DNA from: Synechococcales cyanobacterium
GTDB lineage: Bacteria > Cyanobacteriota > Cyanobacteriia > CAKZMO01
DNA length: 64,000 nt
Direction of reading: 5' to 3'
Assembly (NCBI GenBank): GCA_035285585.1
Contig: JAYKGU010000021.1
Coordinates: 3,283 to 67,282, forward strand
Under the pieces are notes generated by a model, which searched no databases, was not told the DNA's origin, and saw only the letters and a list, made by a program, of their open reading frames with translations. Position numbers and translations under genes: made by a program. Positions 38,770-64,000 of this stretch are shown piece by piece. The number at the start of each line of letters is the position of its first letter. Positions within the stretch are counted from its first letter, which is position 1.

Positions 38770-38864
38770 TTGGGCGTTTGATCGGGTTTATTGAAAGAAT
38801 TGATCCATCTCTAGGTCGAGAGTGCATCGGTGTTAATTATTAGAAAAGTGGAGGGACTGGAAAG

Positions 38865-40433: not shown

Positions 40434-40442
40434 TCCTCTGCT

Positions 40443-41579
40443 ATGACGAGCACCAATCTACCCAAGCCTTCCCACCATCCCCTTGCAGAATATATTTATC
40501 GGTTAGAATCCGGGGCGGCGCTGCTGGATGATTCACCAGCGAACGTCATGGAAGTTGTCGGGGTTCTCAAAAGCTATGGCGTCATCCTGGATGCTTACTC
40601 AAATAACCTGATTTACATCGCCAACGAGCAATTTCTGGTCTTTTTTCCTTTCTTTAAGTATTTCAACGGTGATCTGACGGTTCAGAAGCTGCTACGCCAC
40701 TGGTGGCACGACCGCATTAATTATGAATACGCCGAGTACTGTATGAAAGCGATGCTCTGGCACGGCGGCGGTGGCCTGGAGGATTATGTAAATGATCCCA
40801 AGTTCAAAGCGCTGGTGGAACCACTTATTCAGGCAAAATTTCGCTGGAACTGGCCTTTACGGGGACTCCATCGGGCATTTCCAGAGTTTTTGCCAGAGCA
40901 GATGCGCCAGATGTGCTACTACAGTGCATTAGGTCAGTTTTGGCGGGTAATGAGCGATATTTTTTTGAATCTGTCAGATCAGTATGATTGCGGCAATATT
41001 CAAACCGTTCCCGATGTGGTCGCCCATATTCTTGATGGTCTGGTTGCCGATGCCGCTCGCCCTATTACCTATCAGGTTAGGGTGGGGGGGGAAACCTTCG
41101 AGGTGATTCCCAAATCCGCCGGGTTGACCTTCCTGGCCGACGCAGCAGTTCCCTACGTGGAAGCCGTGTTCTTTAGAGGAACCCCCTTCCCGGGCACCAT
41201 TTCGTACAACGCCCAGGCTTATCAAATTCCCTACTACCAGCAAGATTTTGCCTACGGTGCGCTCTTTGCCGACCCCCTGCCCATTGGCGGCTCGGGCATT
41301 CCCCCCACCCAACTCATGCAGGATATGCGACATTACTTACCTGACTATTTGCACGACATTTACCGGCACACCGGGCGCGGTGAGGATGACCTGCGCGTTA
41401 AGATCTGTGAAAGCTTTCAAAAGTCTATGTTTTGCGTGACCACAGCAGCCATTCAGGGGCTGGCTCCCTACCCGCTTACCACCGATGATCCCCAACAGCG
41501 CCAGGAAAATCGGGTCTACCTGGAAACCTGGATGGATCGGTTTCTAGAGTCACGACTGCGGGCAGTGCAATCCGTATAA
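40443..41579 (+). CDS. CO2 hydration protein CupA/CupB (ChpY/ChpX); size favours CupB/ChpX
   Basis: Follows ndhF-ndhD directly; conserved VVGVLKSYGVILDAYSNNLIYIA...FFPFFKYFNG block; 378 aa. Confidence 0.7.
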   Translation: MTSTNLPKPSHHPLAEYIYRLESGAALLDDSPANVMEVVGVLKSYGVILDAYSNNLIYIANEQFLVFFPFFKYFNGDLTVQKLLRHWWHDRINYEYAEYCMKAMLWHGGGGLEDYVNDPKFKALVEPLIQAKFRWNWPLRGLHRAFPEFLPEQMRQMCYYSALGQFWRVMSDIFLNLSDQYDCGNIQTVPDVVAHILDGLVADAARPITYQVRVGGETFEVIPKSAGLTFLADAAVPYVEAVFFRGTPFPGTISYNAQAYQIPYYQQDFAYGALFADPLPIGGSGIPPTQLMQDMRHYLPDYLHDIYRHTGRGEDDLRVKICESFQKSMFCVTTAAIQGLAPYPLTTDDPQQRQENRVYLETWMDRFLESRLRAVQSV

Positions 41580-41774: not shown

Positions 41775-44510
41775 ATGTCAGCTTCATCTTCTTTACCCAA
41801 TCATCCGTTGCACGATATGACCAATGCTGACGTGGTGTCAGTCGATGCTGTGGTCGTGAGTACAGGGATGCCGCCAACGGCTGAGGGCAGTCTTGCCAAG
41901 TCTCCGTTAGAGCAATCCATCGAAGCGTCTCCGATCAGCGTGCAGGGTGCAACCGAGGGCTTCTCGTCGGATGGCTCTGCTTTCTCAGGCCCTTCTAGAA
42001 CCGGGGGGACGCTGGCTACCACCCAGGGCAGCTTCGGCTCTTTCCTGGCCCCGTTAACCACCGAAACTTTCAAGCAGGTGGTTAACGATGTCGAGGAAAA
42101 GCTGCACATCGTCAACCAGACCCTGTCGATGCTCGACTCCCTCCTTGACAGCCAGGGGTTCGACGCCATCCTCAACGAGATGCTGCGCTCGATTACTCTG
42201 AAAACTGGGGAGTTGCTCAACGCCGATCGCACCACAATTTATCTTTTAGACGAAGAAAAGAATGAACTGTGGTCCATTCTCGCTAAAAACGAAAAAGGCG
42301 GCAATTTGGAGCTACGGTTTCCCGCCACGATGGGGATTGCTGGAGAATCCGCAACGTTCAAAAAAACAATCAACATTCCCTTCGATTTCTATAGCGACCC
42401 ACGGGCGGAATTTGCTAAGCAAAAAGACTTAGAAACGGGATATCGCACCTACACCATGCTGGTGCTGCCTCTGCTGGACGAGGCAGGGAACCTGGTGGCG
42501 GTGGTGCAGCTAATCAACAAGCTGCGGAAGGAGTATGCGTCCAATGCTTCCCTGGCAGACAAAATTGACCTGGAAGGCTTCAGTCACACTGACGAAGCGC
42601 TCTTTGAAGAATTCGCGCCATCGATTCGCCTGATTCTGGAGTCCTCCCGCTCCTTCTACAAAGCCACCCAGCAGCAGCGGGCCGCCTCAGCCCTGATGAA
42701 GGCCACCAAGGCCCTCAGCCAGAGCAGCCTGGATCTGGAGGAGACCCTGAAGCGGGTGATGGACGAAGCCAAGGAGCTGATGCAGGCCGATCGCAGCACC
42801 CTCTGGCTGGTGGACGAAGACCGGGAAGAGCTGTGGACCAAAATTCCCATTGATGGCGTGCTGCGGGAGATTCGCATTCCCCGGTCGGCGGGGTTTGCCG
42901 GACAGGTTGCTACCACCGGGGAACCGGTGATCATCCCGTTTGACCTGTATGATCACCCCAACGCTGATACCGCCAAAGAAACGGACAAGAAAACCCATTA
43001 CCGCACCTGCAGCATGCTGTGCATGCCCGTGTTTAACGCTGACGGCAACTTAATCGGGGTTACCCAGCTCATCAACAAAAAACGCCAGGGGGATTACCCG
43101 CCCTACGATCCCCAGAAATGGCCAATGCCGCCTGAATGCTGGAAGGCGAGCTTCAATCGCAACGATATGGAGTTCATGAAGGCGTTTAATATCCAGGCGG
43201 GGGTGGCTCTGCAAAACGCCAAGCTGTTCAACACGGTGAAGCAGCAGGAGCAGATGCAGCGGGATATTTTGCGATCGCTCTCTAATGCAGTCCTCTCCAC
43301 TGACCACGAAGGCCGGGTAATTGCCGTCAACCAGAGTGCCTGCCAGTTGCTCAACCTGGAAGATGCTTCCGCAGTCGAAGGGAAGCCAATTGAGACCCTG
43401 ATTAACGTCCAGGAGCGCAGCTTTGCTGAATGCTTCAGTCGGGCGCTCAAGCCAGAGGACGACACAGACCGCCAGCAGTACTATCCCGAACAAACCCTGG
43501 TGTCCAGTGAGATGCTGCACCAGGCGGAACAGCACAGCGTCCACCTCTCCATTAACTCCATTGCTGATGTGGAGGACCCCTCTAACATCTACGGTGCTCT
43601 GATTGTCATGGACGACATCAGCGACGAGAAGCGGCTGAAAAGCACCATGTATCGCTACATGAGCCAGGAGGTGGCCGAGCAGCTCTTGAAGTCTGGCGAG
43701 GCGCGACTGGGGGGCGATCGCAAAGATGTGTCCATCCTGTTCTCCGATATCCGCAGCTTTACCACCATTGCTGAAAGCATGGAGGCGGAGGAACTGGTGA
43801 CCATGCTCAACGAATATTTTGAGTCCATGGTGGACGCCGTTTTCCAGTACAAGGGCACTTTGGATAAATATATCGGTGACGCCATCATGGCGGTGTTTGG
43901 CGCGCCCCTGGCCCTGGAGGATCACGCCTGGCGGGCGGTACAGACGGGGATCGAAATGCGCCACCGGCTGGAGGTGTTTAATCGCGATCGCCAGGCCCAA
44001 AACAAAATTCCCATCACCATCGGGATCGGCATTAACTCTGGCCCAGTCATCAGCGGCAATATCGGCTGCAGCAAGCGGATGGAGTTTACGGCGATCGGCG
44101 ATGGCGTCAACTTAGGTTCTCGTCTGGAGGGGGCGACCAAGCAGTATGGCTGCGACATCGTCATCAGCGAAAGTACTTACCAGCCCTGTGCTGACCTGGT
44201 GTGGGCGCGGGAGCTAGACCGCATCCGGGTGAAGGGCAAGAACGAGCCGGTGGGCATCTACGACTTGATTGCCCTCCGTTCTGAGCCATTGACGGATGCA
44301 ACCCTGCAAAAGATCGAGCGCTATCGCCAGGGGCGGGCCTACTACCTCGACCAGAGGTTTACCAAGGCGATGAACGAGTTTGGCAGCATCCTGGAAGACA
44401 TCGATCGCCACGATAAGCCCTCGGCGGTGCAGCTCAAGCGCTGCCAGCACTGGCTGGAGAATCCGCCCCCGGAAGATTGGGACGGTGTCTGGTCGCTCAC
44501 GGAAAAGTAG
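41775..44510 (+). CDS. Class III adenylate cyclase with tandem GAF domains and a PAS domain (CyaB1/CyaB2-like)
   Basis: Two GAF domains; PAS; CHD catalytic core ILFSDIRSFTTIAE...KYIGDAIMAVFGAP...GINSGPVISGNIG. Confidence 0.85.
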   Translation: MSASSSLPNHPLHDMTNADVVSVDAVVVSTGMPPTAEGSLAKSPLEQSIEASPISVQGATEGFSSDGSAFSGPSRTGGTLATTQGSFGSFLAPLTTETFKQVVNDVEEKLHIVNQTLSMLDSLLDSQGFDAILNEMLRSITLKTGELLNADRTTIYLLDEEKNELWSILAKNEKGGNLELRFPATMGIAGESATFKKTINIPFDFYSDPRAEFAKQKDLETGYRTYTMLVLPLLDEAGNLVAVVQLINKLRKEYASNASLADKIDLEGFSHTDEALFEEFAPSIRLILESSRSFYKATQQQRAASALMKATKALSQSSLDLEETLKRVMDEAKELMQADRSTLWLVDEDREELWTKIPIDGVLREIRIPRSAGFAGQVATTGEPVIIPFDLYDHPNADTAKETDKKTHYRTCSMLCMPVFNADGNLIGVTQLINKKRQGDYPPYDPQKWPMPPECWKASFNRNDMEFMKAFNIQAGVALQNAKLFNTVKQQEQMQRDILRSLSNAVLSTDHEGRVIAVNQSACQLLNLEDASAVEGKPIETLINVQERSFAECFSRALKPEDDTDRQQYYPEQTLVSSEMLHQAEQHSVHLSINSIADVEDPSNIYGALIVMDDISDEKRLKSTMYRYMSQEVAEQLLKSGEARLGGDRKDVSILFSDIRSFTTIAESMEAEELVTMLNEYFESMVDAVFQYKGTLDKYIGDAIMAVFGAPLALEDHAWRAVQTGIEMRHRLEVFNRDRQAQNKIPITIGIGINSGPVISGNIGCSKRMEFTAIGDGVNLGSRLEGATKQYGCDIVISESTYQPCADLVWARELDRIRVKGKNEPVGIYDLIALRSEPLTDATLQKIERYRQGRAYYLDQRFTKAMNEFGSILEDIDRHDKPSAVQLKRCQHWLENPPPEDWDGVWSLTEK

Positions 44511-44572
44511 GGCGCAACGGAGGCGCTCTCTGGAGAAGGGTTAGCCGTTGGACGGGGCGGTTGAGTTTTTAA

Positions 44573-44673
44573 TCCGCAGATTTCGCAGATTTCGCAGATG
44601 GCTACCCATTCCGAACAAACTGCGCCCCCTCCGTACTGATTCTCTATCTGCGTTCATCTGCGGCATCTGCGGA
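44573..44673. repeat. Small MITE-like element with GCAGAT(G/T) heptad terminal inverted repeats
   Basis: CCGCAGATTTCGCAGATTTCGCAGATG ... CTGCGTTCATCTGCGGCATCTGCGG in inverted orientation. Confidence 0.5.
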
Positions 44674-44723
44674 AAGATAACAGGCCCTAATAACAAACCC
44701 CAACCTGTCGGCTGGGGTTGCTT

Positions 44724-44772
44724 TAGCGCTTCTGTATAGCGCTTCTGTATAGCAAGTTCTGTATAGCAGATA
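44724..44772. repeat. Short tandem repeat (~14-nt unit TTCTGTATAGC(G/A), 3-4 copies)
   Basis: gcgcttctgtatagcgcttctgtatagcaagttctgtatagcag read directly. Confidence 0.6.
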
Positions 44773-44941
44773 GAGATATCAAATCGAACCTGTAATTACT
44801 CTACTTTACGAACTGTAAAGAACAGCCAAATTCCCGATAAAGAGTGAATGAAACTCCGTAGATAGCCCGATTTTTCAAGGACTGAGGTACAATCACAGCA
44901 AATCTTGTGTTGATCGGTAAATTACGTGAGGAGCTTGGGTG

Positions 44942-45223
44942 ATGAATAAGGGCGAGTTGGTAGATAAAATTGCCGAAAAAGCTGGGGTAACGAAAAAGCA
45001 GGCTGACGCTATTTTGACCGCAGCGCTGGACAGCATTATGGAGGCCGTTAGCGATGGCGAAAAGGTGACCCTGGTAGGGTTTGGTACCTTTGAACCGCGC
45101 GATCGCCAGGCCAGAGAAGGGCGCAATCCCAAAACGGGTGAGGCGTTGACGATTCCGGCTACCACAGTTCCGGCCTTCAGCGCTGGGAAAGTTTTCAAGG
45201 AAAAAATGACTGAAGCAGAGTAG
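44942..45223 (+). CDS. hup: HU family DNA-binding protein
   Basis: MNKGELVDKIAEKAGVTKKQADAILTA...GFGTFEPRDRQAREGRNPKTGE...; GAGGAG RBS. Confidence 0.85.
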   Translation: MNKGELVDKIAEKAGVTKKQADAILTAALDSIMEAVSDGEKVTLVGFGTFEPRDRQAREGRNPKTGEALTIPATTVPAFSAGKVFKEKMTEAE

Positions 45224-45539
45224 GGGCATCGTCGTGTGGGGAGCCTCAGCGATGGGCTGGCAATGGTTTGAGTTTTGAGTTTGATCGGATTTTGCCTAAA
45301 GATTTACTGTTGATACTCCCGTTATCCTTGGCCCCGCGCTGAGGATTTTTGCGTATGGGGCCAGGGTTGCCTTGGGGGAAGTGCGCTTTTCAGGCTTTGC
45401 AGAAATTTCACGGTGAGTTAAAGTTTGCCCATCGTTGTGGGTTAACTAAAAGTGGCAGGCTTCCCGCTGATGGTTTCAGATCATTGGCTTCTGCACCTTC
45501 GCGCCGGTTTTTCGCTGGCTCTGTCAGCTACCTCGCCCC

Positions 45540-49258: not shown

Positions 49259-49966
49259 GTGCAAGCTGATCCGGTGATCCTTCAGGAGTGGGTGCCGCCA
49301 CTAGAGAGTGGCGATCGCCTCACTCGCCATGAGTTTGAACGCCGCTATCGAGCCATGCCTCAGGTCAAAAAAGCTGAACTCGTTGAAGGAGTTGTCTACG
49401 TGGCTTCCCCGGTTCGCATGATGCGCCACGCTCGGCCCCACGGCAGGGTAATCACCTGGTTGGGAACTTATGAAGCGGCGACGCCAGGGGTAATGGTGGG
49501 GGATAATCCGACAGTGCGGCTGGATTTGGACAACGAACCCCAGCCCGATGCCCTGCTGCGAATTGAGGAAGCCTGTGGTGGGCGATCGCGCATTACCGCA
49601 GATGACTATGTCGAAGGTGCGCCAGAGCTGATTGTGGAGGTGGCGGCTAGCAGCGCCTCCTATGACCTGCATGACAAGCTGACTGCCTATCGCCGCAACG
49701 GAGTGGAGGAATATCTGGTGTGGCTGGTGATGGAAGGGGAGTTTCGCTGGTACGAACTGCGGGAGGGAGCCTATTACCTCCAGTCCGCTATAACTGGGGA
49801 GGCGGTTTATAAAAGTCGGGTCATGCCGGGACTGTGGCTAGATACGAATGCGCTGCTGGCGGGGGAGATGGCGCAGGTGCTAGCAGTGCTCCAGCAGGGA
49901 ATTGATTCTCAGGAACACCAGGATTTTGTCAGGCGGCTGCGGAACTTAGCAGAAGGAACAGCTTGA
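49259..49966 (+). CDS. Uma2-family (DUF820) putative restriction-endonuclease-like protein
   Basis: Typical Uma2 N-terminus (WVPPLESGDRLTRHEFERRY...) and length. Confidence 0.65.
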   Translation: MQADPVILQEWVPPLESGDRLTRHEFERRYRAMPQVKKAELVEGVVYVASPVRMMRHARPHGRVITWLGTYEAATPGVMVGDNPTVRLDLDNEPQPDALLRIEEACGGRSRITADDYVEGAPELIVEVAASSASYDLHDKLTAYRRNGVEEYLVWLVMEGEFRWYELREGAYYLQSAITGEAVYKSRVMPGLWLDTNALLAGEMAQVLAVLQQGIDSQEHQDFVRRLRNLAEGTA

Positions 49967-52400: not shown

Positions 52401-52790
52401 ATGACTCTCTCCTCCAGTTCAGACAAGCCGAAAAGACGCCCTAAGAATCCCGTTGTAGTGGGCATGACCTGGCTGTCAATTGTATCGTTTGTGGGCTTTA
52501 CGGGCTTTAGCGTCGTCCAGCTCTTTCAGAGTGCGCTAAATTTTGGCGATGAAGAGGTGGCGGAGACGGTTTCCCTGAATGAGCAGCTCCAGACCCAGGA
52601 GCGGGGCTATGAGATTGTTCTGGAGCGAGAACCGGACAATGTGGTGGCCCTGGAGGGACTGGCGAATACGCGGATGGAGATGGGGGATTATGAAGGGGCG
52701 ATCGCCCCTCTGGAAAAACTCGTTGAAATGTATCCGGATTTCCCTCAATATCAAACCCTGCTGCAACAAGCCGCTGAACAGGCTCCTTAA
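52401..52790 (+). CDS. Small membrane-anchored TPR-like protein
   Basis: One TM helix plus TPR-like C-terminus. Confidence 0.35.
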   Translation: MTLSSSSDKPKRRPKNPVVVGMTWLSIVSFVGFTGFSVVQLFQSALNFGDEEVAETVSLNEQLQTQERGYEIVLEREPDNVVALEGLANTRMEMGDYEGAIAPLEKLVEMYPDFPQYQTLLQQAAEQAP

Positions 52791-52868
52791 CGCTGTAATT
52801 TGTTTATTTACAAGATTCTCCTCCAGGCTTTAACTATTTGGTTTCGAACCAAAATTTCTAAACACTCA

Positions 52869-53756
52869 ATGAATATCTTGTTTATTTCGTCGGGGTTGAT
52901 GCCGGATTATCAGTGTGATTCCCTTTTTCATGGGTTAAGGGAAGTCTTTGGAAATGGGGTGGTTGATATAAACAAAGTTGAATATATGTATAAAACCTTT
53001 CCATTATCAGAAAAGCCAAACCTCTACGGAAAAGGATTTACACTGTACGGGCTTTTAGAGGATGAATCGGATATCGACAGGAGTGATATAGAGAGCAAGA
53101 TTAAGCACAGATTCTTCGACTTCATCGTCTACGGTAGTATTCACAGGTGTCAAACTTATGTTGAAACCGTTCTGGACATCTACCCACCCGAAAATATCGT
53201 TTTCATTGATGGAGAGGATGATGGCAAGGTCATAAATCTACTGCTCAACAGGGGCTTCTATTTCAAGCGAGAGCTTCAAGCAGAAAATCGCTTCATTTTG
53301 CCAATTCACTTTTCCGTGCCGAAGGACAAGTTTATTAATGACATTTACGAATTAGAAAAACTCAGCTTTCGGTCCCACTGTGATCCTAGAGATCGGAGTA
53401 CTTACATCTATGAAAAGGAGGAGGACTATTACCAGCAGTATCAAGAAAGCTTCTTCGGTTTCACTACGAAAAAAGCCGGATGGGATTGCTTACGTCACTA
53501 TGAAATCATTGCTCAAGGATGCGCCCCGTACTTTCCCGATCTGTTAGACTGCCCCTATTTGACGATGCATAGATTTCCTCGCCTGGAAACGATAAGGCTG
53601 ATGGAAATCGCCGACTACTGCGTTCAGAACGAGTATCTGGATATGGAAGGATATTTATCTAATCTTGAGTACCTTTTTAACTACGCAAAAAAATATTTGA
53701 CGACGGCAGCAGTTGCCAGCTATGTTATTGAGCAATTAAAATCTTATTCCAATTGA
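52869..53756 (+). CDS. Hypothetical protein, first gene of the low-GC island
   Basis: Low GC; no recognisable motif; ATG at 52869 (MNILFISSGL...). Confidence 0.4.
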   Translation: MNILFISSGLMPDYQCDSLFHGLREVFGNGVVDINKVEYMYKTFPLSEKPNLYGKGFTLYGLLEDESDIDRSDIESKIKHRFFDFIVYGSIHRCQTYVETVLDIYPPENIVFIDGEDDGKVINLLLNRGFYFKRELQAENRFILPIHFSVPKDKFINDIYELEKLSFRSHCDPRDRSTYIYEKEEDYYQQYQESFFGFTTKKAGWDCLRHYEIIAQGCAPYFPDLLDCPYLTMHRFPRLETIRLMEIADYCVQNEYLDMEGYLSNLEYLFNYAKKYLTTAAVASYVIEQLKSYSN

Positions 53757-53845
53757 ATAAATTTATCTAATTTCAAGCAAGATATAAGTTCTTTAATAAA
53801 CTAGATACTATTGCATGTTCTCTTTGCAAGCGCTGGTGCCCCCAT

Positions 53846-56800
53846 ATGACCTCTCTACCTACTCCTACACGTGTTGATATCGGCTGTGGACCTCGCAAGG
53901 CTCCGGGCTTCATTGGGGTTGATATTGCCCCTATCCCTGGGGTTGACATTGTTGCTGACCTTAACAAGAAGTTCCCCTTCGAAGATAGTACTGTAGACGA
54001 GCTGCGTGCCTATGATGCAATTGAGCATCTCGTCGATCGCATACACACCATGAACGAAATCTGGCGTGTCTGTAAACCCGGTGCAAAAGTTGATATCTTT
54101 GTGCCTTCTAGCGATGGGAGGGGTGCGTTCCAAGACCCAACGCACGTCAGTTTTTGGAATATCAACTCTTTCAAGTACTACTGCATTGAGTTTCCTGGCT
54201 ACATCGGTTTATGCCATCAGTACGGGTTTAAAGGCGCATTTCGGCTACTCGAAGCAGGGCACGTAAAATCTCCTGATGAGGTCATCCATGTTAGCGCGAA
54301 ATTGGAGGTCGTCAAACCTGTTCCGTGGGATGCCGAGCTATCAGGCGTTCCGTCTCAGGCTCACACACTTCGTCAAGAGGCGACTCAAACGAGTGCTACA
54401 GAGATTAAAGAACCGGTTTCCTCGCTTGACTATGTGATTCCTCCTGAAATTAAGCACGATGAGTCTGATCAAGCGATTCAGCAGATTACTCAGGAAGAGG
54501 AGATTCGCACCATTTCTGAAATCGGCTCCTTGTCAGGGCAGAGCAGTATGGATACATTAGAGCGGGGCAGTATGGATACATTAGAGCAGGGCAGTATGGA
54601 TACATTTACTTATAAGGGAAAGGTTTTCCATTATAACAGTATAAAGTACAACAATCCGAGCGAGAGAGCTGTAGAAATTCCCATTGGTTTTGAATTCCTT
54701 GTCAGAAACTCACGCAAGAGTAAGATATTAGAAGTTGGGAATACATTGTCTAATTATGAAAATTTCCTAAGTGAATATATTGGAATAAAAAACAGAAAGA
54801 TTATCGACAAGTTCGAGAAAAACATCGGTGTAGATCAGATTGATTTGATGGAAATCCCATCAACAGAGAAATATGGTGCCGTTGTTTGTATCTCAACAGC
54901 AGAGCATATTGGACAGGGAGAAAATCCCCAAGGAATTTATGGCGAAGTAGCCAATCATGAGAGGGATAGGGAAGCTCCATTAAAGGGGATAGCCAAAATT
55001 TATGAGATCCTGGAAATTGGGGGAGAAGCGCTAATAACTGTCCCTTTTGGGAAATTAATTGATGGAAATTGGTATATTCAGTTTAGCCAGGAATATCTTG
55101 ACTTGTTATTTCAGAAGTATCAAGTCAGGAAGCAGGATGCCTTCATTGGTTTCTTGAAAAAAACTGATATGAGAACTAGCGAAGATTATCCTTATCCAAC
55201 TTACCAAAGATGGATTCAGGTTGAGAATCCTGAAGATTTATCAGACGTTGAATATAATAATCCTTTTCTCTTCGCAAATTCAATTGCTGTTATTGAGTTA
55301 AGTAAGAGTGACCACAGCTTTCGACTCAACCTTGCAAAGCCACCCTCAACACTTGAGTATGCATCCCCCATTGAACTGGAAACAGCAGTTGGCCGACTAA
55401 AAATAGAGAAAGCCATTCAGAGAAAGGATTCAGCTGGTCGGGTCTCTGAAGCGCTTGAGAATTACAAATCTACTAAACACCCATATATTGCTATCGATGG
55501 CGTTTTCTTTCAACTTTATAATACTGGCATTGCAAGGGTTTGGCGCTCGCTTCTTGAGTATTGGTCCAAAAATGAGTTTAGAGACCATATCATTGTTCTT
55601 GAGCGCGGAGACTCAGCCCCAAAATTCCCTGGAATAAAGTACCTTTCGATTCCTGAATATAGTTACAATTCGGCTACAGAAGATAGAGGGATTTTACAAG
55701 CTGTTTGTGATTATTTAGAAGTTGACTTATTCATTTCAACTTACTACACTTCACCCATTTCAACACCTTCTGTTTTCATGGCGTACGACATGATTCCAGA
55801 AGTAATGGGGTGGGATTTGAATCATCCTATGTGGCGCGAGAAACATCGTGCTATCCAACAAGCATCAGCGTATGTTTCAATATCACAGAATACAGCTAAT
55901 GATCTAGCTAAATTATTCTCTGGTATTGACTCAGATCAAATAACAGTTGCTTTATGCGGCGTAAGTGACGTCTTTAAACCTGCATCAACTGAAAACATTA
56001 TTCAATTCAAAGAAAGATATAGTATCACTAAGCCTTATTTTATTCTGGTAGGAGCAAACAGCGGACCTCAGAGCTATAAAAATGCTATTTTGTTCTTTCA
56101 AGCGTTTGCCAAGTTGCCTAGTAGAGCTGGATTTGAAGTGATTTGCACGGGTTCAGATTCGATACATGAAGCGTTTCGAGAATATGTATTTGGTACGAAG
56201 ATCCATGCTTTGAGATTAAGCGACGAAGAACTAGGAGTAGCGTATTCAGGAGCGATCGCTCTAGTCTATCCTTCCAAATATGAGGGTTTTGGGTTGCCTC
56301 TAGTCGAAGCAATGGCATGTGGCTGCCCTATTATTACTTCCCCCAATGCGTCTATTCCAGAAGTAGTGGGTGAAGCAGGGCTTTATGTGAATAGTGACGA
56401 TGTGATTGGCATGACGACTGCCCTCTGTGAAATTCAGAAACCTGAACTTCGTCAGTCCCTTATCTCTGTAGGTAAAGAGAGAGCCGAGCAGTTTACTTGG
56501 CAGTCAATGGCTGAGACTGTTCAAGCCGCATTAATTCGTACGACCTTGGCGAACTTGAATTTACAGGATATCAACTATCTTGCATTTCCTGATTGGACTC
56601 GGCCCATAGAGACCTTGGGTGAAGAGTTTCAGAATATTCTCCGCTCTCTTAGTCATCATCCGGACAAAGAGCGGATGACTTTAGTGCTCGACGGGAGTGA
56701 TATTGCAGAAGAAGAGGCTGAATTGCTCATGTCCAGCATTGCAGTAAACCTGATGCTGGAGGAAGAAATAGATTTTGGAACCGGACCAAAAGTCGCATTA

Positions 56801-56938
56801 ACTGGAGAACTTAGTTCGATGCAATGGAGTAATTTACTAAAGCTAGTTCAAGGGAGGATTTCGTTGGAAGGAGAAAATACGGCAAAAGTTCAGGGAGTTA
56901 ATGCTTCTTTGCTACCGATTATTGAATATGATATGTGA
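53846..56938 (+). CDS. 1030-aa fusion: class I SAM methyltransferase, a second Rossmann MT-like domain, and a GT4 (group 1) glycosyltransferase
   Basis: [18 protein letters not shown] (MT motif I); central ILEVGN...; C-terminal [20 protein letters not shown] (GT4 E-x7-E); internal 3x24-bp tandem repeat. Confidence 0.75.
54535..54606 (+). repeat. 3 x 24-bp perfect or near-perfect in-frame tandem repeat encoding (Q/R)GSMDTLE
   Basis: cagagcagtatggatacattagag / cggggcagtatggatacattagag / cagggcagtatggatacattt. Confidence 0.8.
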
Positions 56939-57033
56939 AGTAACGTCATTTTGCTCAACTACTTCTAGACAAGTAAATAGTGCTCTGATTACATTAATGG
57001 CGTTAAAGCATAGATGGAAATCGAGTTCTTATT

Positions 57034-57933
57034 TTGTATACCGTAGAATTATTCACAACCTACCCCTATTCTGAGATGCCAAAAGAGTATGAGATCGGTT
57101 CCTACAAAATTATGTTGCCTGATGATCATCAACTTGATCATTATCAATCTGTATATCCTCGTTATGATATTTGTTTGGGATATATCTCGCAGTTTGCTGC
57201 TCTCAAATATCAGAATTTAACTGTAATTGACGTTGGGGCAAACGTTGGCGATAGTGCTGCACTGATTCAAAAATATCAGAGCATTCCAACTTTATGTATT
57301 GAGGGCAATCCAGAGTTCCTGGAGTACCTTGAACACAATGCAGAAGTTATTGGAAACATTCAGATCGAAGATTGTTTCATTGGGAAAGACGGCGAATCTG
57401 TAGATTTGAGTAAAGTATGGATGCAAGGTGGAACGGCTTCGATTGTTAATGCAGTCAATTCTGACGGATTTTTCTATGTGAACATGAAAAGCCTTGAAAC
57501 GATTTTAGAAGGTCATCCATCTTTTCGTAACTTTAAACTTATAAAATCTGACACTGATGGTTTTGATTTTTCTATTATCAAACAATCAAAGGAAATTCTT
57601 CAGGTGAATAAGCCGATTATCTATTTTGAATATTCAACACTTTTTCACTTGTCAGCTTATACTGAATCATTGGAAGCGATAACAGTTTTAATCGAGTGTG
57701 GCTATACAAAGTTTCTAGTGTATGATAATTTTGGTAATTATGTGATAAGCTTGGAGGATGATCTTGAGAAATTTATCGATTTGACTACTTTTCTCTTCTC
57801 AAACTTACGGTGTAACGGGAGAGCAGCAGTATATTACCTGGATATTTGTGCATTTACAAACGAGGATTTGGACTTGTTTGAATCAATTAGGGAAAAAGAA
57901 CTTGAACTTATCCAAGTAACCCTAAGTAGGTAA
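57034..57933 (+). CDS. FkbM-family methyltransferase
   Basis: LTVIDVGANVGDSAALI motif; low GC. Confidence 0.7.
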   Translation: MYTVELFTTYPYSEMPKEYEIGSYKIMLPDDHQLDHYQSVYPRYDICLGYISQFAALKYQNLTVIDVGANVGDSAALIQKYQSIPTLCIEGNPEFLEYLEHNAEVIGNIQIEDCFIGKDGESVDLSKVWMQGGTASIVNAVNSDGFFYVNMKSLETILEGHPSFRNFKLIKSDTDGFDFSIIKQSKEILQVNKPIIYFEYSTLFHLSAYTESLEAITVLIECGYTKFLVYDNFGNYVISLEDDLEKFIDLTTFLFSNLRCNGRAAVYYLDICAFTNEDLDLFESIREKELELIQVTLSR

Positions 57934-58069
57934 AGGCAGAGAAACTCAGCTACATAATTACATAATTACGTTAGTGGCAGACAACGCCTCACCGTCCAGC
58001 AAGTCCGCAAATTAGCAGAGCAATTTCACGTTTCACCGGCAATCTTCGTGTAAGCAGTCAATTCTTGTC

Positions 58070-60301
58070 CTACCGTCGCGACTCCAGATACAGTGCCCAC
58101 ATCCGCTGATAGGCATCCTCCATATCTTGGGTAAATTGCCGTCCATTCCAGAGTGGGGCTGTTTTTCGAGATTGAATTAGCTTCCATGTCACTTGAGATC
58201 GAAGGGAATGATCCGTTCCCAGACGAATGCCCCAGTCCACATATTCCTCATCTGTCCAGGCAATACCTTCCACAACGCCTCCATTCACCATCATGGTATA
58301 GCTATTGCGGGCAGCAAACTGGGTGCCTACCCGCGTAACCAGCGGAATGCCCATCCATAGGGTTTCCAGCGTGGTGGTGGCTCCGTTGTAGGGATAGGTA
58401 TCCAGAACCACGTCAGCGATACCCAGATTGGCGCGATGGTCAGCTTCAGAGCTAACCATCGGTAAAAACCGGAGGCGATCGAAGCTAACCCCCTCCTCTT
58501 CTGCAATCTGGCTAAAGAGATGCCTGACAGCTTCCTGGTCTGCCTTTCCCTTGATTAGGAAATAGCTGTTGGGGACGTTTCGCAAAACTTGCATCTGTAG
58601 CCGTACCGTATCGGGATGGCGCTTATATCCACTTTGATTGCTGAGATAAACGATTGCATCACTGGGAATATCAAGGGCATCGCGACGTAAATTAGGGATA
58701 CCCACTTCAAAGCCATCTACGGCGATGTAAGTTTGAGGCAATCGCCAAATTGTTTCTTTATAGTATTTTTGGGCATCCGGTGGCAGCACGTACGGGTCGG
58801 CCATGAAGTAGTCAACCGCCGGTAGTCCAGAGGCATCCCAACCCAGCCAGGTAACCTGGATAGGTGCTGCCTTCAAGGCCAAAACCTGACAAGTTATGGG
58901 AGCTGTGATGCTATCTAAATCAACTAAAATGTCTATCTGATCTTTGTGAATTTGGTCAGCAATCGCCTCAGATTTTGCCTCTATCTGATAAGCCTGATCC
59001 GCCTGACGCATATACCAATCTTCCAACGGGTCAGGCATCTCGACAGCATACTGAATGTGATAGGTATAGACCCTGACGCGATCACGGCGGTGGTGTTGAA
59101 TTAACCAGCGAGCCAACCAACCAACTGAATGAGTCCGCAAGCATCGGGAGAGGTAGCCAATTCTCAAAGGACGGGAAGAAGCTTGAATCTTTTGTTGATT
59201 GAGTTGGTGTTCAGTGAGTTCGTATTTACCAGACAAATCAACCCCGGCGTCCTGCTCTACCCGCATAATTGTCTGGCAAATCTGGGTTGTCCGATTGGTT
59301 ATAGCCCGATTTTCTTCAATATCGTCCTTCATGTAAGGCAGCAGAAAAACAGAACTAAATAGTTTACGAATATCGCGATCACTCACATCAGGCTCATCAT
59401 CCAGCGAGAGGTTGCTCAACAGGTTTACGTAATCAGTCCAATCGGGCAGGAAGTCATTCCGCCGCCCTCCTGATGCGGCGATTCCACGGAGGATCAAATA
59501 CTTGGCATAAATCTGATCGACGGATGACTGGACCAGTGTAAAGCAGCGATGAGCAACCTGAATGCCCTGCTTATAGTGATGGATATTTTGATAGAAAGCC
59601 GCTAGCTCTTCTAAAACGATAAGGTTTGTCGGATTAAGCTGGAGGCAGATCTCGGCAATCTGTAGCGCCGTGTCCCATGATTTCCAGGTATAGGCTGCTT
59701 GTTTAAGCGCTTTGATCAGAATACGGTCTCGCTGGGAAGACGGTTCCAGATAAGTTGATGCCAGGCGAAGGCATTCAAGAATCATCGGATTAGTGGGATC
59801 CCACTCCAAAACTGCTTGCAGGGTTTCTGACAGTACCTCCGATTTGCTTTCATCAGGTGTCGTAATTGAACCAAAGGCGTCTACCAGCGACAGGTCTACT
59901 AGACGCTCGGTGGTTAATGTCCTAAGCCTGCTTTCTAGAATGACAATTTTGAAGCGGTTATAGATGTTTTCAGGATTTAACTCGTAAATATACTGTCGAA
60001 TTGCCCAGGCGACTGAGTGATTGTTATAGGACTCCTGGTGCTTGGCCTCAGTATCTAAAATTTGAACTAATTCTGACAGACCACTGTACCCATCTTCGGT
60101 GTCGCAATTCATGAGAGCAGCCATCCAGACTGCCTGGGCTTCCGCTTCTTCACCTTGAAGCAAGAGAGCCAGTCCCAGGTACCAATAATGAGTGTGAATT
60201 GCGGGTTCTAACTCAATGGCATGGCGATAACACTGCTCTGCACCAGAGTAATCCTTTGCTACCCAGCGTTGATGAACCTGTTGTTGCCAATCGTCTTGCA
60301 T
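58070..60301 (-). CDS. TPR-repeat / GT41-like (SPINDLY/OGT family, COG3914) glycosyltransferase, paralog 1 with lower GC (track ORF extends to 60367 via a GTG)
   Basis: C-terminus DTYPYNGATTTLETLWMGIPLVT...MWALYLESRR resembles the OGT catalytic C-lobe; N-terminal TPRs. Confidence 0.7.
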   Translation of the reverse strand: MQDDWQQQVHQRWVAKDYSGAEQCYRHAIELEPAIHTHYWYLGLALLLQGEEAEAQAVWMAALMNCDTEDGYSGLSELVQILDTEAKHQESYNNHSVAWAIRQYIYELNPENIYNRFKIVILESRLRTLTTERLVDLSLVDAFGSITTPDESKSEVLSETLQAVLEWDPTNPMILECLRLASTYLEPSSQRDRILIKALKQAAYTWKSWDTALQIAEICLQLNPTNLIVLEELAAFYQNIHHYKQGIQVAHRCFTLVQSSVDQIYAKYLILRGIAASGGRRNDFLPDWTDYVNLLSNLSLDDEPDVSDRDIRKLFSSVFLLPYMKDDIEENRAITNRTTQICQTIMRVEQDAGVDLSGKYELTEHQLNQQKIQASSRPLRIGYLSRCLRTHSVGWLARWLIQHHRRDRVRVYTYHIQYAVEMPDPLEDWYMRQADQAYQIEAKSEAIADQIHKDQIDILVDLDSITAPITCQVLALKAAPIQVTWLGWDASGLPAVDYFMADPYVLPPDAQKYYKETIWRLPQTYIAVDGFEVGIPNLRRDALDIPSDAIVYLSNQSGYKRHPDTVRLQMQVLRNVPNSYFLIKGKADQEAVRHLFSQIAEEEGVSFDRLRFLPMVSSEADHRANLGIADVVLDTYPYNGATTTLETLWMGIPLVTRVGTQFAARNSYTMMVNGGVVEGIAWTDEEYVDWGIRLGTDHSLRSQVTWKLIQSRKTAPLWNGRQFTQDMEDAYQRMWALYLESRR

Positions 60302-60367
60302 ATTTACATTCACAGTGATTTTAACCGCGGTAATTTCTCTTAAAAGCCCTTCACCCAGTTTGCCCAC

Positions 60368-60480
60368 ATCTGCTGATAGGAATCCTCTATACCGTGGATA
60401 AACTGTTGCCCATCCCGCAGAGGATTCGTTTTGCGGGATTGGAGCAGTTTCCAGGCTACCTGCTATCGGAGCATTTGATC
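60368..60480 (-). pseudogene. Remnant 3' end (~35 codons) of a fourth TPR/GT41-like gene
   Basis: The reverse complement translates ...LLQSRKTNPLRDGQQFIHGIEDSYQQMWAN, matching the paralog C-termini (LIQSRKTAPLWNGRQFTQDMEDAYQRMWALY). Confidence 0.5.
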
Positions 60481-60616
60481 CGTTTCCAACAAACGCTTCA
60501 ATCTCCTACTCCTTAATTTGTCCAAACAATGCCCTCCTATAAGCCCACATTCACCATCGACTTGGTGTTCGCCCTACCGATTGTGTTTTCTGAGGAAGCT
60601 CTCCTTCGCATCAAAA

Positions 60617-62878
60617 TTACCGTCGCGACTCCAGATACAGCGTCCACATCTGTTCATAGGCATCCTCTATCTCGCGGGTAAACCGTCGCGTATCCCAGAG
60701 CCGTGCCGTGTGCCGCGCCTTCTGCAACTGCCACCCAATTTTTTGCCGCAGCTTCACATCCGTTCCCAGGCGGATGCCCCACTCCACATACTCCTCAGTC
60801 GACCAGGCAATGCCCTCCGTCAGGCCCACATTCACCATCATAGAATAGCTGTTGCGGCTGGAGAACTGCTGCCCCACCTGGGTTACCATCGGCACCCCCA
60901 TCCACAGGGTTTCCAGCGTAGTGGTGGCCCCATTGTAGGGGTAGGTATCCAGCACCACGTCGGCGATCGCCAGATTAGCCCGATGGGTCGTTTCGCTGGG
61001 CACCTCCGGCAGAAAACGGAGGCGATCGCCCGCCACCCCCGCCGCTTGAGCCGTCTGGATGAAGAAATCCTGGAGCGAGGCTTCCTGGCTGGAGCTTTTG
61101 GTGAGCAGGTAGCTATTAGGCACCGCCTGCAAAATCTGCATTTGCCGCTGCACCGTGTCGGGGTGGAGCTTTTGCCCCCGCTGGGCGCTGAGGTAGATCA
61201 CCGCATCCGCAGGAATGCCCAGCTCATCCCGCCGCAGGCTGGGCACCGTGGCCTCTACCCCGTCGATGGCCACAAAGGTAGACGGGAGCCGCCAGAGGGT
61301 TTCCCGGTAATCTGCCTGGGCATTGTCTGGCAGCACGTAGGGGTCGGTAATGAAATAGTCCACCGCTGGAATTCCGGGCGCATCCCAGCCCAGCCAGCTA
61401 ATCTGCACGGGGGCGGGCTTCAGGGCCATTACCTGACAGGCCACGTCAAAGGTGGCGCTATCCAGGTCAATGAGCACGTCAATCTCGTCGTCATGGATTT
61501 GCTGAGCCACCGTCAGGGCATCGGCGGGCAGGCGATGGGCCACCTCCGCCCAGTCGGCAAACTGATCCTGCAAAAAATCCGTGCCCTGGGAGCCTGCCCC
61601 CACAAAGTAGGCATGGAGCATCAGCCGCTCCCGGTCGTGGTGTTGGAACAGCCAGCGCACAATCCAGCCCACGGAGTGCCGTCGCAGGCAGCTCGACAGG
61701 TAGCCCACCCGCAGCCGTCGGGGAGAAGTTTGGGCAGATGGGGCCACACCCGCCCGCCAGCGTCTGCGATAGGTGGCCACTGGGTCGGGCAGCAGGCGTT
61801 CCAGATGGGTCTGGCACAGTTGGCCCAGGGCGTTTTGCAGGGCGCGGTTTTCCTGGGGGGCATCGCGGAAATAGGGCTGGAAAAATCCCATCGTAAACAG
61901 TTGGCGCACCTCATCGCGGCTCAAGTCCGCTGGGGGAGCCGCCAGCAACTGCCGCAGCAGTGCTTGTTCCTGCTGAAAGTGCTGACAGCCCTGCTGCCAG
62001 TAGCCACCGCGAATCATCACCACCTGAATCATTAAGTGCTGGGCAAAAATCCGGTCGGTGACGTTCTGGGCCAGCTCCAGACAACGCTGGGCCGTGGTGA
62101 TCGCCTCGTCATAGCGCACCGCCCGCTGATAAAACCCGGCCAACTGCCGCAGCATCCCCACATGATCCGGCTGAAACTGAAGGCAGCATTCCGCCAGCCG
62201 CACCGCCAGCGCTGGCTTGTGGTTCACATAGGCAATCTTATTTGCCGCCTGCCTCACAATGCTGGTGAAGCGATCGCCATAGTCCGCCAGCTCCGCTACC
62301 CAGGCTGCCGCCCCATTGACCAGGGCGGAGAGTAAATCATCGGCGCGATCGCCCCGCAGTGACTCATCACAGAACAGCACCTGGGCCACCACTTGCAGCA
62401 ATAGATCCAGGTTGACCTCACTGGGGTTAGCGGCTGCAAGTGCCTCCAGGACGCCCCAGTCCTCCAGATGCTCGGCGGCAAACTGCTCCTGCATGATGTC
62501 AAGCTGCACCAGCAGCAGCAAATTGTTAAGGGCATCGGGGGCAATTTCCCGCAGGTGCTGGCGAATCAGCCAGGCCCGATCGTAGTGCCGCTGCTCGTGC
62601 TGGCGGGCCGCCTCAGTGTCCAGGACTTGCAGCAGCTCCAGGGTCCAGTCGGCCACCTGGGCCTCATCCCCAGCGGCGAGGGGCGTCATCCAGATGGCCT
62701 GGGCCTCCATTTCTTCGCCCTGGAGCAGCCGCACCAGCCCCAAATGCCAGTAGTGGGAGACAACATCGGGTTCGGCTTCGATGGCCTGCCGATAGAGGGC
62801 TTCTGCCTGGGTGTAGTTGCCTGTGGCGATGTAGCGATCGCCCTGTTGCCGCCAGTCGGATGTCAGTTCTTGCATCAT
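60617..62878 (-). CDS. TPR-repeat / GT41-like (SPINDLY/OGT family) glycosyltransferase, high-GC paralog 2
   Basis: DTYPYNGATTTLETLWMGVPMVTQVG...MWTLYLESRR; alignable along its length with paralog 1. Confidence 0.7.
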   Translation of the reverse strand: MMQELTSDWRQQGDRYIATGNYTQAEALYRQAIEAEPDVVSHYWHLGLVRLLQGEEMEAQAIWMTPLAAGDEAQVADWTLELLQVLDTEAARQHEQRHYDRAWLIRQHLREIAPDALNNLLLLVQLDIMQEQFAAEHLEDWGVLEALAAANPSEVNLDLLLQVVAQVLFCDESLRGDRADDLLSALVNGAAAWVAELADYGDRFTSIVRQAANKIAYVNHKPALAVRLAECCLQFQPDHVGMLRQLAGFYQRAVRYDEAITTAQRCLELAQNVTDRIFAQHLMIQVVMIRGGYWQQGCQHFQQEQALLRQLLAAPPADLSRDEVRQLFTMGFFQPYFRDAPQENRALQNALGQLCQTHLERLLPDPVATYRRRWRAGVAPSAQTSPRRLRVGYLSSCLRRHSVGWIVRWLFQHHDRERLMLHAYFVGAGSQGTDFLQDQFADWAEVAHRLPADALTVAQQIHDDEIDVLIDLDSATFDVACQVMALKPAPVQISWLGWDAPGIPAVDYFITDPYVLPDNAQADYRETLWRLPSTFVAIDGVEATVPSLRRDELGIPADAVIYLSAQRGQKLHPDTVQRQMQILQAVPNSYLLTKSSSQEASLQDFFIQTAQAAGVAGDRLRFLPEVPSETTHRANLAIADVVLDTYPYNGATTTLETLWMGVPMVTQVGQQFSSRNSYSMMVNVGLTEGIAWSTEEYVEWGIRLGTDVKLRQKIGWQLQKARHTARLWDTRRFTREIEDAYEQMWTLYLESRR

Positions 62879-62931: not shown

Positions 62932-63270
62932 CTAGAGATACAAAACCATCCGCAACCCCTCGTCTACCTCCGCTTGCAAGTAGTCTGGTAGTGAGCCGAT
63001 CCGTTCGGTTAGGAATGCTTTATCAACGGTAGAAATTTGCGATACGTTTGCAACAGAATCCCTGAGTAAACCTGACGCTTCCCGAGGCAACAACACATTT
63101 CCGGGTGCTTCTGCTAATTGGGTATTCGAGGTAATGATCACGACGATAACCGTCTTGATACGGCTTTGAGTAAAGACATCATCTTGAATTACCAAAACAG
63201 GACGACGATACCCCGGTTCTGAACCGACTGGATTCGGTAAATGCGCCCACCACAGTTCTCCCCGATACAT
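62932..63270 (-). CDS. Type II toxin, MazF/PemK family
   Basis: RGELWWAHLPNPVGSEPGYRRPVLVIQDD...TVIVVIITS pattern; ATGA overlap with the upstream antitoxin. Confidence 0.65.
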   Translation of the reverse strand: MYRGELWWAHLPNPVGSEPGYRRPVLVIQDDVFTQSRIKTVIVVIITSNTQLAEAPGNVLLPREASGLLRDSVANVSQISTVDKAFLTERIGSLPDYLQAEVDEGLRMVLYL

Positions 63271-63506
63271 TACCAATCCTCATGAGGCAGAGACATAAAT
63301 TGCATCTTTGCTATTACTGGATCAAGCTCAGAAGGCTCTCTAGAGTAAACCTGGTTCAACTTGTGCAGAATTTGATTGCGGTTGTACTTTTTCAAGTAAG
63401 CTTTTAACGCCTGGGTGTAAAGCTCACTACGGGACAAGCCAAGCCGCTGGGCCAACGCTTCTGCCTCTTCAAAAACAGAGTCTGGAAGCGAAATTGCAGT
63501 TTTCAT
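63270..63506 (-). CDS. Ribbon-helix-helix-type antitoxin
   Basis: 78 aa; MKTAISLPDSVFEEAEALAQRLGLSRSELYTQAL (RHH-like); immediately upstream of the MazF-like toxin. Confidence 0.5.
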   Translation of the reverse strand: MKTAISLPDSVFEEAEALAQRLGLSRSELYTQALKAYLKKYNRNQILHKLNQVYSREPSELDPVIAKMQFMSLPHEDW

Positions 63507-63691: not shown

Positions 63692-64000
63692 TTATGCCTC
63701 TAAATAGGTGGCCCACATTTGCTCGTATGCCCGTTCCATTTCGCGGGCGAACTGGCGACCGTTCCACAGGGGGGCGGTCTGGCGGGACTGCTTTAGCTTC
63801 CAGTGGATTTGCTCCCGCAGGGCGCGATCGCACCCCAGACGCACGCCCCACTCGACGTATTCCTCATCGGTCCAGGCGATGCCTTCGGTGATGCCTGCGT
63901 TAACCATCATGGTGTAGCTGTTGCGGGCAGCAAACTGTTGCCCCACCCTTGTCACCAGGGGAATGCCCATCCATAGGGTTTCCAGGGTGGTGGTGGCCCC
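63692..64000 (-). CDS. TPR/GT41-like glycosyltransferase paralog 3 (3' part only; gene continues past the window end)
   Basis: MGIPLVTRVGQQFAARNSYTMMVNAGITEGIAWTDEEYVEWG...MWATYLEA; the open frame continues to position 64000. Confidence 0.7.
   Translation of the reverse strand, partial: GATTTLETLWMGIPLVTRVGQQFAARNSYTMMVNAGITEGIAWTDEEYVEWGVRLGCDRALREQIHWKLKQSRQTAPLWNGRQFAREMERAYEQMWATYLEA

Follow-up and report, generated by a model that had tools for sequence, protein, structure and literature searches.

A low-GC cassette of methyltransferase and glycosyltransferase genes beside tandem ogt genes in a cyanobacterium: a candidate pilin-glycan locus

Why does one stretch of a cyanobacterial contig fall to 40% GC in the middle of DNA at about 56%, and what do the sugar-modifying genes that it carries act on? 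The contig, JAYKGU010000021.1, comes from a Synechococcales metagenome-assembled genome (MAG; GenBank assembly GCA_035285585.1), and we analysed 64 kb of it (positions 3,283 to 67,282 of the forward strand, renumbered from 1 and called the window throughout). A preliminary description, made from the letters of the window, had pointed to a low-GC island at 52,790–57,960 that resembled a horizontally acquired cassette for the synthesis or transfer of an O-methylated sugar. On balance we favour a related reading: the block from 52,791 to about 60,600 would be a recently imported allele of a hypervariable glycan-tailoring cassette, occupying a fixed slot between a small gene for a transmembrane (TM) plus tetratricopeptide repeat (TPR) protein and a convergent ogt gene, followed in many genomes by pilA, and the glycan concerned would be attached to protein, probably pilin.

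Extent and gene content of the low-GC block

The interval 52,791–57,960 has 40.4% GC, against a mean of 55.7% (s.d. 1.6%, minimum 52.9%) in 191 other intervals of 5.17 kb (z = −9.8). At a resolution of 500 bp, GC falls from about 0.60 at 51.5–52.2 kb to 0.34–0.49 over 52.75–58.0 kb, and at 100 bp the left edge is sharp, with 0.50 at 52,690 and 0.31 at 52,790, right past the stop codon of the upstream gene. Codon usage changes with it: GC at third codon positions (GC3) is 0.47, 0.38 and 0.33 for the three island genes in order (a 295-residue protein, a 1,030-residue fusion protein and an FkbM-family protein, the last being the lowest value in the window), against 0.59–0.75 in nearly all remaining measured genes, the exceptions being 3225–3989 (0.525), 31878–32528 (0.558) and the low-GC mazF toxin gene 62932–63276 (0.47). 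The abrupt drop in GC and codon usage proposed at about 52.8 kb is therefore borne out, and the GC did not become uniform on proper computation, the island lying far outside the native intervals; the flanks average about 56–57% GC, not the 60% first given. The dinucleotide-signature distance (delta*) of the island to the rest of the window is 71, compared with 33 ± 11.5 (maximum 64) for native 5-kb intervals.

An independent marker is the cyanobacterial HIP1 octamer GCGATCGC, present in 90 copies in the window where about 1.3 are expected by chance. Its density outside the block is 1.60 per kb, roughly one per 630 bp of native DNA, and between 52,706 and 60,962 we found one site where 13.2 are expected (13-fold depletion, Poisson P = 3e-5); both of the longest HIP1-free gaps of the window fall within the anomalous block. 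As a convenient marker of native DNA in this genome, HIP1 sets the limits of the foreign block at 52,706–60,962. Foreign origin, as first proposed, is thus backed by four measures: GC, GC3, dinucleotide signature and HIP1 depletion.

Composition does not become native again at the right border at about 57,960. GC remains 0.46–0.52 through the next gene (58070–60367) and reaches 0.61 only at about 60.7 kb, and because of this the anomalous block is about 7.8 kb long and has two tiers, one of about 40% GC and a second of about 48% GC that runs to roughly 60.6 kb. Profile searches give the gene content that had been described for the first tier (hypothetical protein, methyltransferase–GT4 fusion of 53846–56938, FkbM methyltransferase). 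The block and its anchors comprise the following features.

52401–52790, + strand: small protein (129 aa) with an N-terminal TM segment and TPR, the native left anchor (TPR Pfam hits; GC3 0.59; HIP1 site at 52698)
52869–53756, + strand: 295-aa protein of an unannotated family, with a predicted GT-B-like fold (AlphaFold2 (AF2) and Foldseek)
53846–54355, + strand: fusion residues 1–170, class I S-adenosylmethionine (SAM) methyltransferase domain, here MT11 (Methyltransf_11, PF08241, 27.8 bits against a cut-off of 21.2), motif I DIGCGPRK
54356–54592, + strand: fusion residues 171–249, linker ending in a tandem repeat (Tandem Repeats Finder score 124)
54593–55435, + strand: fusion residues 250–530, 'mid' domain, class I SAM-methyltransferase fold (AF2 pLDDT 81.7; Foldseek)
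55436–56545, + strand: fusion residues 531–900, GT4 (retaining GT-B) glycosyltransferase, EX7E motif EGFGLPLVE (PF13692 63.8 bits and PF00534 57.8 bits, both above cut-off)
56546–56938, + strand: fusion residues 901–1030, unannotated C-terminal domain identified by homologue search, consensus INLIxFPDW...HP...TLLID...MNLLMEE
57034–57933, + strand: FkbM-family SAM methyltransferase, motif I DVGANVGDS (PF05050 36.2 bits against a cut-off of 22.7; TIGR01444 55.5 against 37.7)
58070–60367, − strand: GT41A, TPR plus GT41 protein, Ogt/SPINDLY-like, intermediate GC (PF13844 E = 1e-46; GC3 0.49; zero HIP1 sites)
60361–60560, − strand: decayed fragment of a GT41 3′ end between GT41A and GT41B (repeat search; the alignment shows indels and a lost frame)
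60617–62878, − strand: GT41B, resident Ogt paralogue of native composition, the right anchor (PF13844 E = 3e-50; GC3 0.755; HIP1 resumes at 60963)
63692–64000, − strand: GT41C, the C-terminal end (92-aa open reading frame, ORF) of a third tandem GT41 gene that runs off the window

A syntenic slot and its modular enzymes

The place that the block occupies recurs across cyanobacteria. A genome scan with one genome per species yielded 79 loci with the TPR gene (78 besides the window), tblastn with the window proteins split by domain gave their gene order, and the slot counts use the 61 that have at least 9 kb of downstream sequence. The recurring order starts from the TPR gene (orthologues 37–58% identical; in Kastovskya and Lyngbya, too, they stand before relatives of the fusion protein), continues with one or more large same-strand proteins that end in GT4 and the C-terminal domain, often with a distant same-strand GT41 gene, and closes with a convergent GT41+TPR gene 47–50% identical to GT41A and GT41B. 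The C-terminal domain is present in 46 of these loci, GT4 (at least 50% identity) in 34, the convergent GT41/Ogt orthologue in 30 and a pilin gene in 19, and linkage to GT41 protein glycosyltransferases is found in 39/61. The pilin gene, where present, always lies just upstream of the convergent GT41 on the same strand, an adjacency shown by at least 20 related loci. The cassette had been described as embedded in a polysaccharide neighbourhood; it fills instead a slot that is syntenic across cyanobacteria, from the small TM+TPR gene to a convergent Ogt orthologue.

The first large gene after the TPR gene varies in its modules.

MT11–GT2–GT4: two Nostocales
MT24–GT4: Coleofasciculus
FkbM–...–GT4: Oscillatoria PCC 10802 and Fischerella
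MT23–GT4: Limnoraphis
GT4–MT24–TylF–GT4: Lyngbya aestuarii
mid–MT23–GT4: Lyngbya MAG
mid–GT4: Kastovskya

Because positional orthologues have these architectures, a methyltransferase fused to the GT4 of the slot is the norm, and the fusion once thought unusual is a new permutation of common modules in the normal occupant of the slot. The only full-length match to the 1,030-aa protein among 5.8 billion proteins is the window's own record; within that set it is the MT11–mid–GT4–C-terminal combination alone that is unique. Some loci vary in copy number or neighbours: Pleurocapsa (L036) carries two copies of the small TPR gene (2648–3007 and 4936–5295), an uncultured cyanobacterium (L049, 11218–18148) has three tandem GT4 plus C-terminal-domain units in the slot, and a multi-profile SAM methyltransferase of about 441–446 aa that is absent from the window adjoins the Kastovskya pilin gene (L001, 16977–18302), with a 44% identical copy in the cluster of Cyanobacterium HL-69 (L084, 10997–12337).

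By its Glycos_transf_1-type domain and EX7E motif, the GT4 domain fits the retaining glycosyltransferases of CAZy family GT4, and it is the conserved core enzyme of the locus. Its orthologues (52–64% identity) lie downstream of the TPR gene in 37 loci, and its relatives in the PDB are MshA, Tll1590, GlgM, BshA and PimA/B. Profile matches within the fusion cover residues 35–81 for Methyltransf_11 and 561–892 for GT4. The MT11 module is 70–75% identical to MT11 modules fused to GT41 proteins (Nostoc and others) and 71% identical to a module that follows the TPR gene in locus L082, compared with only 53–58% identity between the remainder of the fusion (mid–GT4) and its best relatives; GC3 is 0.49 for MT11 plus linker and 0.34–0.40 for the rest. 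The repeat that closes the linker (54538–54606, a 24-nt unit × 2.9) encodes GSMDTLE(R/Q) with an in-frame ATG GAT ACA in each copy that resembles the beginning of the stand-alone homologues, and stand-alone mid–GT4 homologues (P0002, P0004 and P0008) start exactly at the end of its third and last copy. The gene looks as if an MT11 module had been joined, at the linker, to a mid–GT4–C-terminal gene that once stood alone, the repeat unit keeping the old start codon. As to the repeat itself, it may be a relic of gene joining or a set of internal start sites.

Neither the linker nor the mid domain has a sequence match in Pfam, NCBIfam or the PDB even at E = 10, and the assignment of the mid domain comes from the structure model, whose top 50 Foldseek hits in the PDB are nearly all SAM-dependent methyltransferases or close relatives of the class I SAM fold (E about 1e-5, with TM-scores of only 0.35–0.43). 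Two SAM-methyltransferase-like domains plus GT4, as originally listed for this protein, are therefore right at the level of fold. Motif I of the mid domain reads LEVGNTLS, of which only E, G and N are invariant, and the glycine-rich E/DxGxGxG is absent; invariant residues of the domain include E47, G49, N50, D72, D84, E104 and H105. Homologues with 44–59% identity are fused to GT4, FkbM or MT23 modules.

The C-terminal domain (about 125 aa) has no match in Pfam, NCBIfam or the PDB even at E = 10. Homologues form 424 representative clusters at E ≤ 1e-3 among 1.84 billion, and they mostly sit at the extreme C terminus of proteins of 400–3300 aa, sometimes in 2–4 copies; some stand alone as proteins of 110–200 aa. 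Across related loci the domain comes after GT4, GT41, mid and MT11 modules (for example, L005, L006, L022, L039 and L049).

The 295-aa protein that opens the block carries the locus tag VKK04_02330 and is annotated as hypothetical by NCBI. The first ORF of the island does exist, with a different start: the ORF list extends it to a TTG at 52800, a probable over-extension, and the ATG at 52869 that gives 295 aa, as in the NCBI record (P0121), is most likely correct. The protein has no sequence match in Pfam, NCBIfam or the PDB even at E = 10, and its family counts 2337 homologues in many phyla, the best of them at 77% (an ENA contig) and 59–61% (Geminocystis and Cyanobacterium HL-69) identity. 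An AF2 model built from a 42-sequence alignment (pLDDT 89.8) has best Foldseek matches that are all GT-B enzymes (the T4 alpha-glucosyltransferase AGT, MshA, PimB′, HepE, BshA and EXT1/2; E 3e-5 to 1e-3, TM-score about 0.5), and K202, G204, W205, D206, R209, H210 and E212 are invariant in the family. The model predicts a compact GT-B-like fold, making the protein a candidate glycosyltransferase, not a proven enzyme. By tblastn, neither this gene nor the FkbM gene has a counterpart in 83 related loci. The closest relatives of the 295-aa gene (61% in HL-69, 77% in the ENA contig) sit among three tandem GT41 genes, methyltransferases and C-terminal-domain proteins, in loci of 29–30% GC, and since they do, the gene comes from the same gene pool as the cassette. 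The family at large (more than 2,300 proteins that have neither a Pfam nor an NCBIfam model) extends through cyanobacteria, Terriglobales, Alphaproteobacteria, Myxococcota and one Bathyarchaeota MAG.

The FkbM protein fits the FkbM family of SAM methyltransferases (PF05050/TIGR01444), passing both curated cut-offs and sharing the DVGANxG motif, and is predicted to O-methylate. The NCBI start is at 57076 (285 aa, or 299 aa from 57034), and no solved structure was matched by sequence. Its best homologues, at 53–59% identity, are uncharacterized cyanobacterial proteins; the one genomic context of a relative that we examined has it beside a GT4 gene, outside the ogt locus.

Two of the three GT41 genes are complete in the window, and the true start of GT41A is probably at about 60301. 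Among PDB entries it is matched best by human OGT (9e-52) and Arabidopsis SPINDLY (5e-48), and the catalytic Lys and His align. GT41A and GT41B share 45% identity, and the last 92 residues of GT41C, whose composition is native-looking, are 76% identical to GT41A and 65% to GT41B. The 3′ ends of GT41A and GT41B (58211–58439 and 60758–60986) are 79% identical in nucleotide sequence over 229 nt, a possible sign of gene conversion.

Protein glycan or polysaccharide

The cassette enzymes look intact, with the EX7E motif of GT4, motif I of MT11 and FkbM, and the catalytic Lys and His of GT41A all kept. The set fits the sugar transfer and O-methylation suggested at the outset, having two GT-B-type proteins and three methyltransferase or methyltransferase-like domains, and synteny indicates that it probably extends and O-methylates a pilin glycan. 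In the cytoplasm, a GT41 Ogt would add the first sugar to Ser or Thr of a protein substrate, most probably the major pilin. The conserved GT4 domain, and possibly the 295-aa GT-B-like protein, would add one or more sugars straight from nucleotide sugars, and these added sugars would then be O-methylated by the MT11 domain and the FkbM enzyme, perhaps also by the atypical mid domain. More speculatively, the C-terminal domain that ends almost every enzyme may serve to dock the enzymes to one another or onto the TPR arm of Ogt. Exchange of the cassette would in this scheme alter the surface chemistry of the pilus.

Published work bears on the first of these steps. According to a 2025 review (PMC12288463), ogt is a neighbour of the major pilin gene in many cyanobacteria and has a part in glycosylating PilA. 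In S. elongatus, PilA requires Ogt (Synpcc7942_0051, near pilA 0048/0049) for its GlcNAc signal and normal mass, a catalytic K445A allele fails to complement the mutant, and the neighbouring genes are called only hypothetical (PMC9306852); N. punctiforme ogtA is listed as required for hormogonium motility and among the genes for type IV pilus components (PMC6495340). GT41A, GT41B and GT41C are likewise TPR plus GT41 proteins with the catalytic Lys and His, and the adjacency of GT41 orthologues to pilin genes in the related loci is as PMC9306852 and PMC12288463 describe. These papers treat a single enzyme with hypothetical neighbours, whereas the window has three tandem paralogues and a methyltransferase/GT4 cassette, and no pilA. 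A full-text literature search, limited in extent and no proof of absence, found no description of such a cassette beside ogt.

That the cassette instead tailors a polysaccharide (extracellular polysaccharide, lipopolysaccharide O-antigen or sheath) with methylated sugars, its position beside ogt being coincidental, we regard as unlikely. GT2 genes and a hexapeptide acyltransferase 4–7 kb upstream speak for it, as does NeuB in the HL-69 cluster, and FkbM, TylF and MT11-type enzymes methylate sugars of polysaccharides and natural products. Yet those GT2 and acyltransferase genes have the composition of native DNA, unrelated genes lie between them and the island, and the GT41 linkage recurs in 39/61 loci. 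By Pfam, the genes from 36.8 to 63.3 kb include no flippase, polymerase, exporter, priming phosphoglycosyltransferase, PglL/PilO-type (Wzy_C-type) oligosaccharyltransferase or sugar-nucleotide enzyme; the island and its 10-kb flanks have no flippase, polymerase, ABC exporter, priming phosphoglycosyltransferase or genes for sugar-nucleotide synthesis. With genes for an exporter, a polymerase, a priming transferase and sugar-nucleotide enzymes all missing from the island, direct protein glycosylation fits better than polysaccharide synthesis, and since GT41 enzymes are constant partners and genes for export or an oligosaccharyltransferase are absent, stepwise protein glycosylation in the cytoplasm is the simplest model.

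Known glycan loci share parts of this arrangement. P. aeruginosa TfpO/PilO and TfpW, the Neisseria pgl system and the Campylobacter flagellin island are strain-variable, often AT-rich sets of glycosyltransferase and methyltransferase genes beside a filament subunit gene, and they diversify the glycan of a surface protein; the locus family of the window is likewise a variable, AT-rich glycosyltransferase/methyltransferase set near a filament gene. The pilin systems of these heterotrophs assemble the glycan on a lipid carrier, and a PglL/PilO-type oligosaccharyltransferase transfers it in the periplasm, whereas the window has no such oligosaccharyltransferase, flippase or priming transferase, which implies a cytoplasmic GT41 route. 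O-antigen (rfb-type) loci, WbdD/WbdA and WsaE are known for low GC, replacement of whole cassettes between conserved flanks and methyltransferase domains fused to or partnered with GT4. The window cassette shares the low GC, the conserved flanks and the methyltransferase–GT4 fusion; it differs from O-antigen loci in having no export or polymerization genes, in having GT41 protein glycosyltransferases as partners, and in that modules of its type carry an apparently cyanobacterial C-terminal domain absent from Pfam.

A wider interpretation, which we put forward tentatively as a possibility and hold less firmly than the reading of this one block, is that a phylum-wide system diversifies protein glycans in cyanobacteria: Ogt would prime the pilin, interchangeable methyltransferase, GT4, GT2 and GT41 modules would extend and methyl-cap the glycan, a shared C-terminal element would dock them, and cassettes would move between lineages. 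We found no description of such a system within the literature searched, nor, in those papers, of pilin-glycan structures or of enzymes that build them beyond the single Ogt. In cyanobacteria, motility, DNA uptake, flocculation and the control of biofilms are driven by type IV pili, and glycosylation of the pilin has an effect on how the pili assemble; if the interpretation is true, movement of cassettes would re-coat the pilus and so permit, for example, escape from pilus-binding phages or grazers. For this genome alone the significance is modest, since a recently exchanged glycan-tailoring cassette is a common event at surface-glycan loci. The comparative picture is of more value: a fixed slot, a conserved GT4 core and shuffled methyltransferase modules offer candidates for pilin-glycan enzymes, the window and about 45 syntenic loci supplying a core of GT4 plus C-terminal domain and a variable arm of MT11, MT23, MT24, FkbM, TylF and GT2. 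Three sizeable unannotated protein or domain families are flagged in the process.

Import, residence and genomic surroundings

Several observations weigh against the reading of the block as an imported cassette for a pilin glycan. The 64-kb window contains no pilin gene (the third GT41 gene runs off its end), and what links the cassette to pilin is the synteny seen in other genomes, together with publications that deal with single Ogt enzymes. The TPR gene occurs without any cassette in 15/61 genomes, including Nodosilinea and related Leptolyngbya-type cyanobacteria, and may be a mere neighbour; the nearest relative in the genome scan is only 58% identical at this anchor protein. The mid domain, in which the canonical glycine-rich loop is missing, may be unable to bind SAM. 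The best sampled homologues are 56–77% identical, so none identifies a donor. A neighbour-joining tree built from GT41 catalytic domains groups GT41A with GT41B, weakly and on long branches, which does not fit a simple import of GT41A. Finally, the cassette is AT-richer than the upstream 10 kb in 24/25 other genomes, the difference averaging 6.4 points and reaching 11.3.

This last observation also speaks for long residence, the alternative in which the genes are old inhabitants of a locus made intrinsically AT-rich by relaxed or different selection on codon use, as at many glycan-diversity loci. A GT4 tree that broadly follows taxonomy is in keeping with it, as are the lack of any donor above 77% identity and the lack of mobility signatures. 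The window stands apart in degree: its drop of 16.5 points is the largest seen, HIP1 is depleted 13-fold as against only about 1.6-fold in the cassettes of other genomes, and the GC3 of GT4 is about 0.34 here and 0.54 in two other high-GC genomes. An Ogt paralogue of native composition and a decayed GT41 fragment, moreover, adjoin the low-GC GT41A. We consider long residence on its own improbable. Whether the block is imported or INTRINSICALLY AT-rich, the answer is that both apply in part: because the slot is AT-rich in 24/25 other genomes, the locus itself accounts for some of the fall in GC.

In the GT4 tree the window sits on a long branch near low-GC Oscillatoriales (Lyngbya, Arthrospira and Trichodesmium), and the best homologues reach 77% identity for the 295-aa protein, 56–58% for the mid–GT4 part, 70–75% for the MT11 module only and 59% for FkbM. 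A search for taxonomic origin, advised in the preliminary description, returned cyanobacterial proteins as the best FkbM homologues and named no donor. Direct repeats at the island borders were looked for on the same advice: the repeat search of the window found no direct or inverted border repeats of note, the sole tRNA of the window is at 21395, away from the borders, and no integrase, transposase or recombinase is present among the window ORFs examined by Pfam. Kastovskya, unlike the window, has a serine recombinase upstream of its corresponding locus. Terminator-like sites at the borders are fewer than in shuffled sequence.

Homologous replacement between the conserved flanks would be the likelier route. 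We read the arrangement as a donor segment, extending from just past the TPR gene through its own ogt, that may have arrived next to the resident ogt copies, and GT41A is probably part of the imported block. GT41A is not claimed as a xenologue on tree evidence, the neighbour-joining tree having failed to split it from GT41B. An assembly chimera, in which a segment of a co-occurring low-GC cyanobacterium was spliced into the MAG contig at conserved sequences, is highly improbable. In its favour are the origin of the contig from a MAG, the conservation across cyanobacteria of the genes that flank the slot, and the 79% identity of the GT41 3′ ends over 229 nt. Against it, native sequence on both sides requires two switches, and the left one falls in non-conserved intergenic DNA right after a stop codon; a k-mer assembler would not be misled by an identity as low as 79%; and on the right the GT41 remnant and the graded GC have the look of biological history.

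Beyond the right anchor, a gene for a PemK/MazF toxin and, upstream of it, a 78-aa ORF for a putative antitoxin (62932–63506, − strand) lie between GT41B and GT41C, with a GC of 0.46–0.51 that is below native. On the left, the upstream GT2 and acetyltransferase genes were considered as members of the island and rejected, since their GC3 is native and HIP1 sites occur in them. A second, smaller GC dip (0.47–0.48, with positive GC and AT skew) occurs at 44500–45250, after a GAF-PAS adenylate cyclase gene and before the first GT2 gene. Farther upstream, 36793–41579 holds two Proton_antipo_M (NdhF/NdhD-type) genes followed by a ChpXY CO2-hydration gene, with an AT skew of −0.21 to −0.26, and looks like an NDH-1 CO2-uptake operon. 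Genes for Uma2-family putative endonucleases lie near or inside the locus in unrelated cyanobacteria (window, 49259–49966; L003, 13309–13929; L084, 1344–1901).

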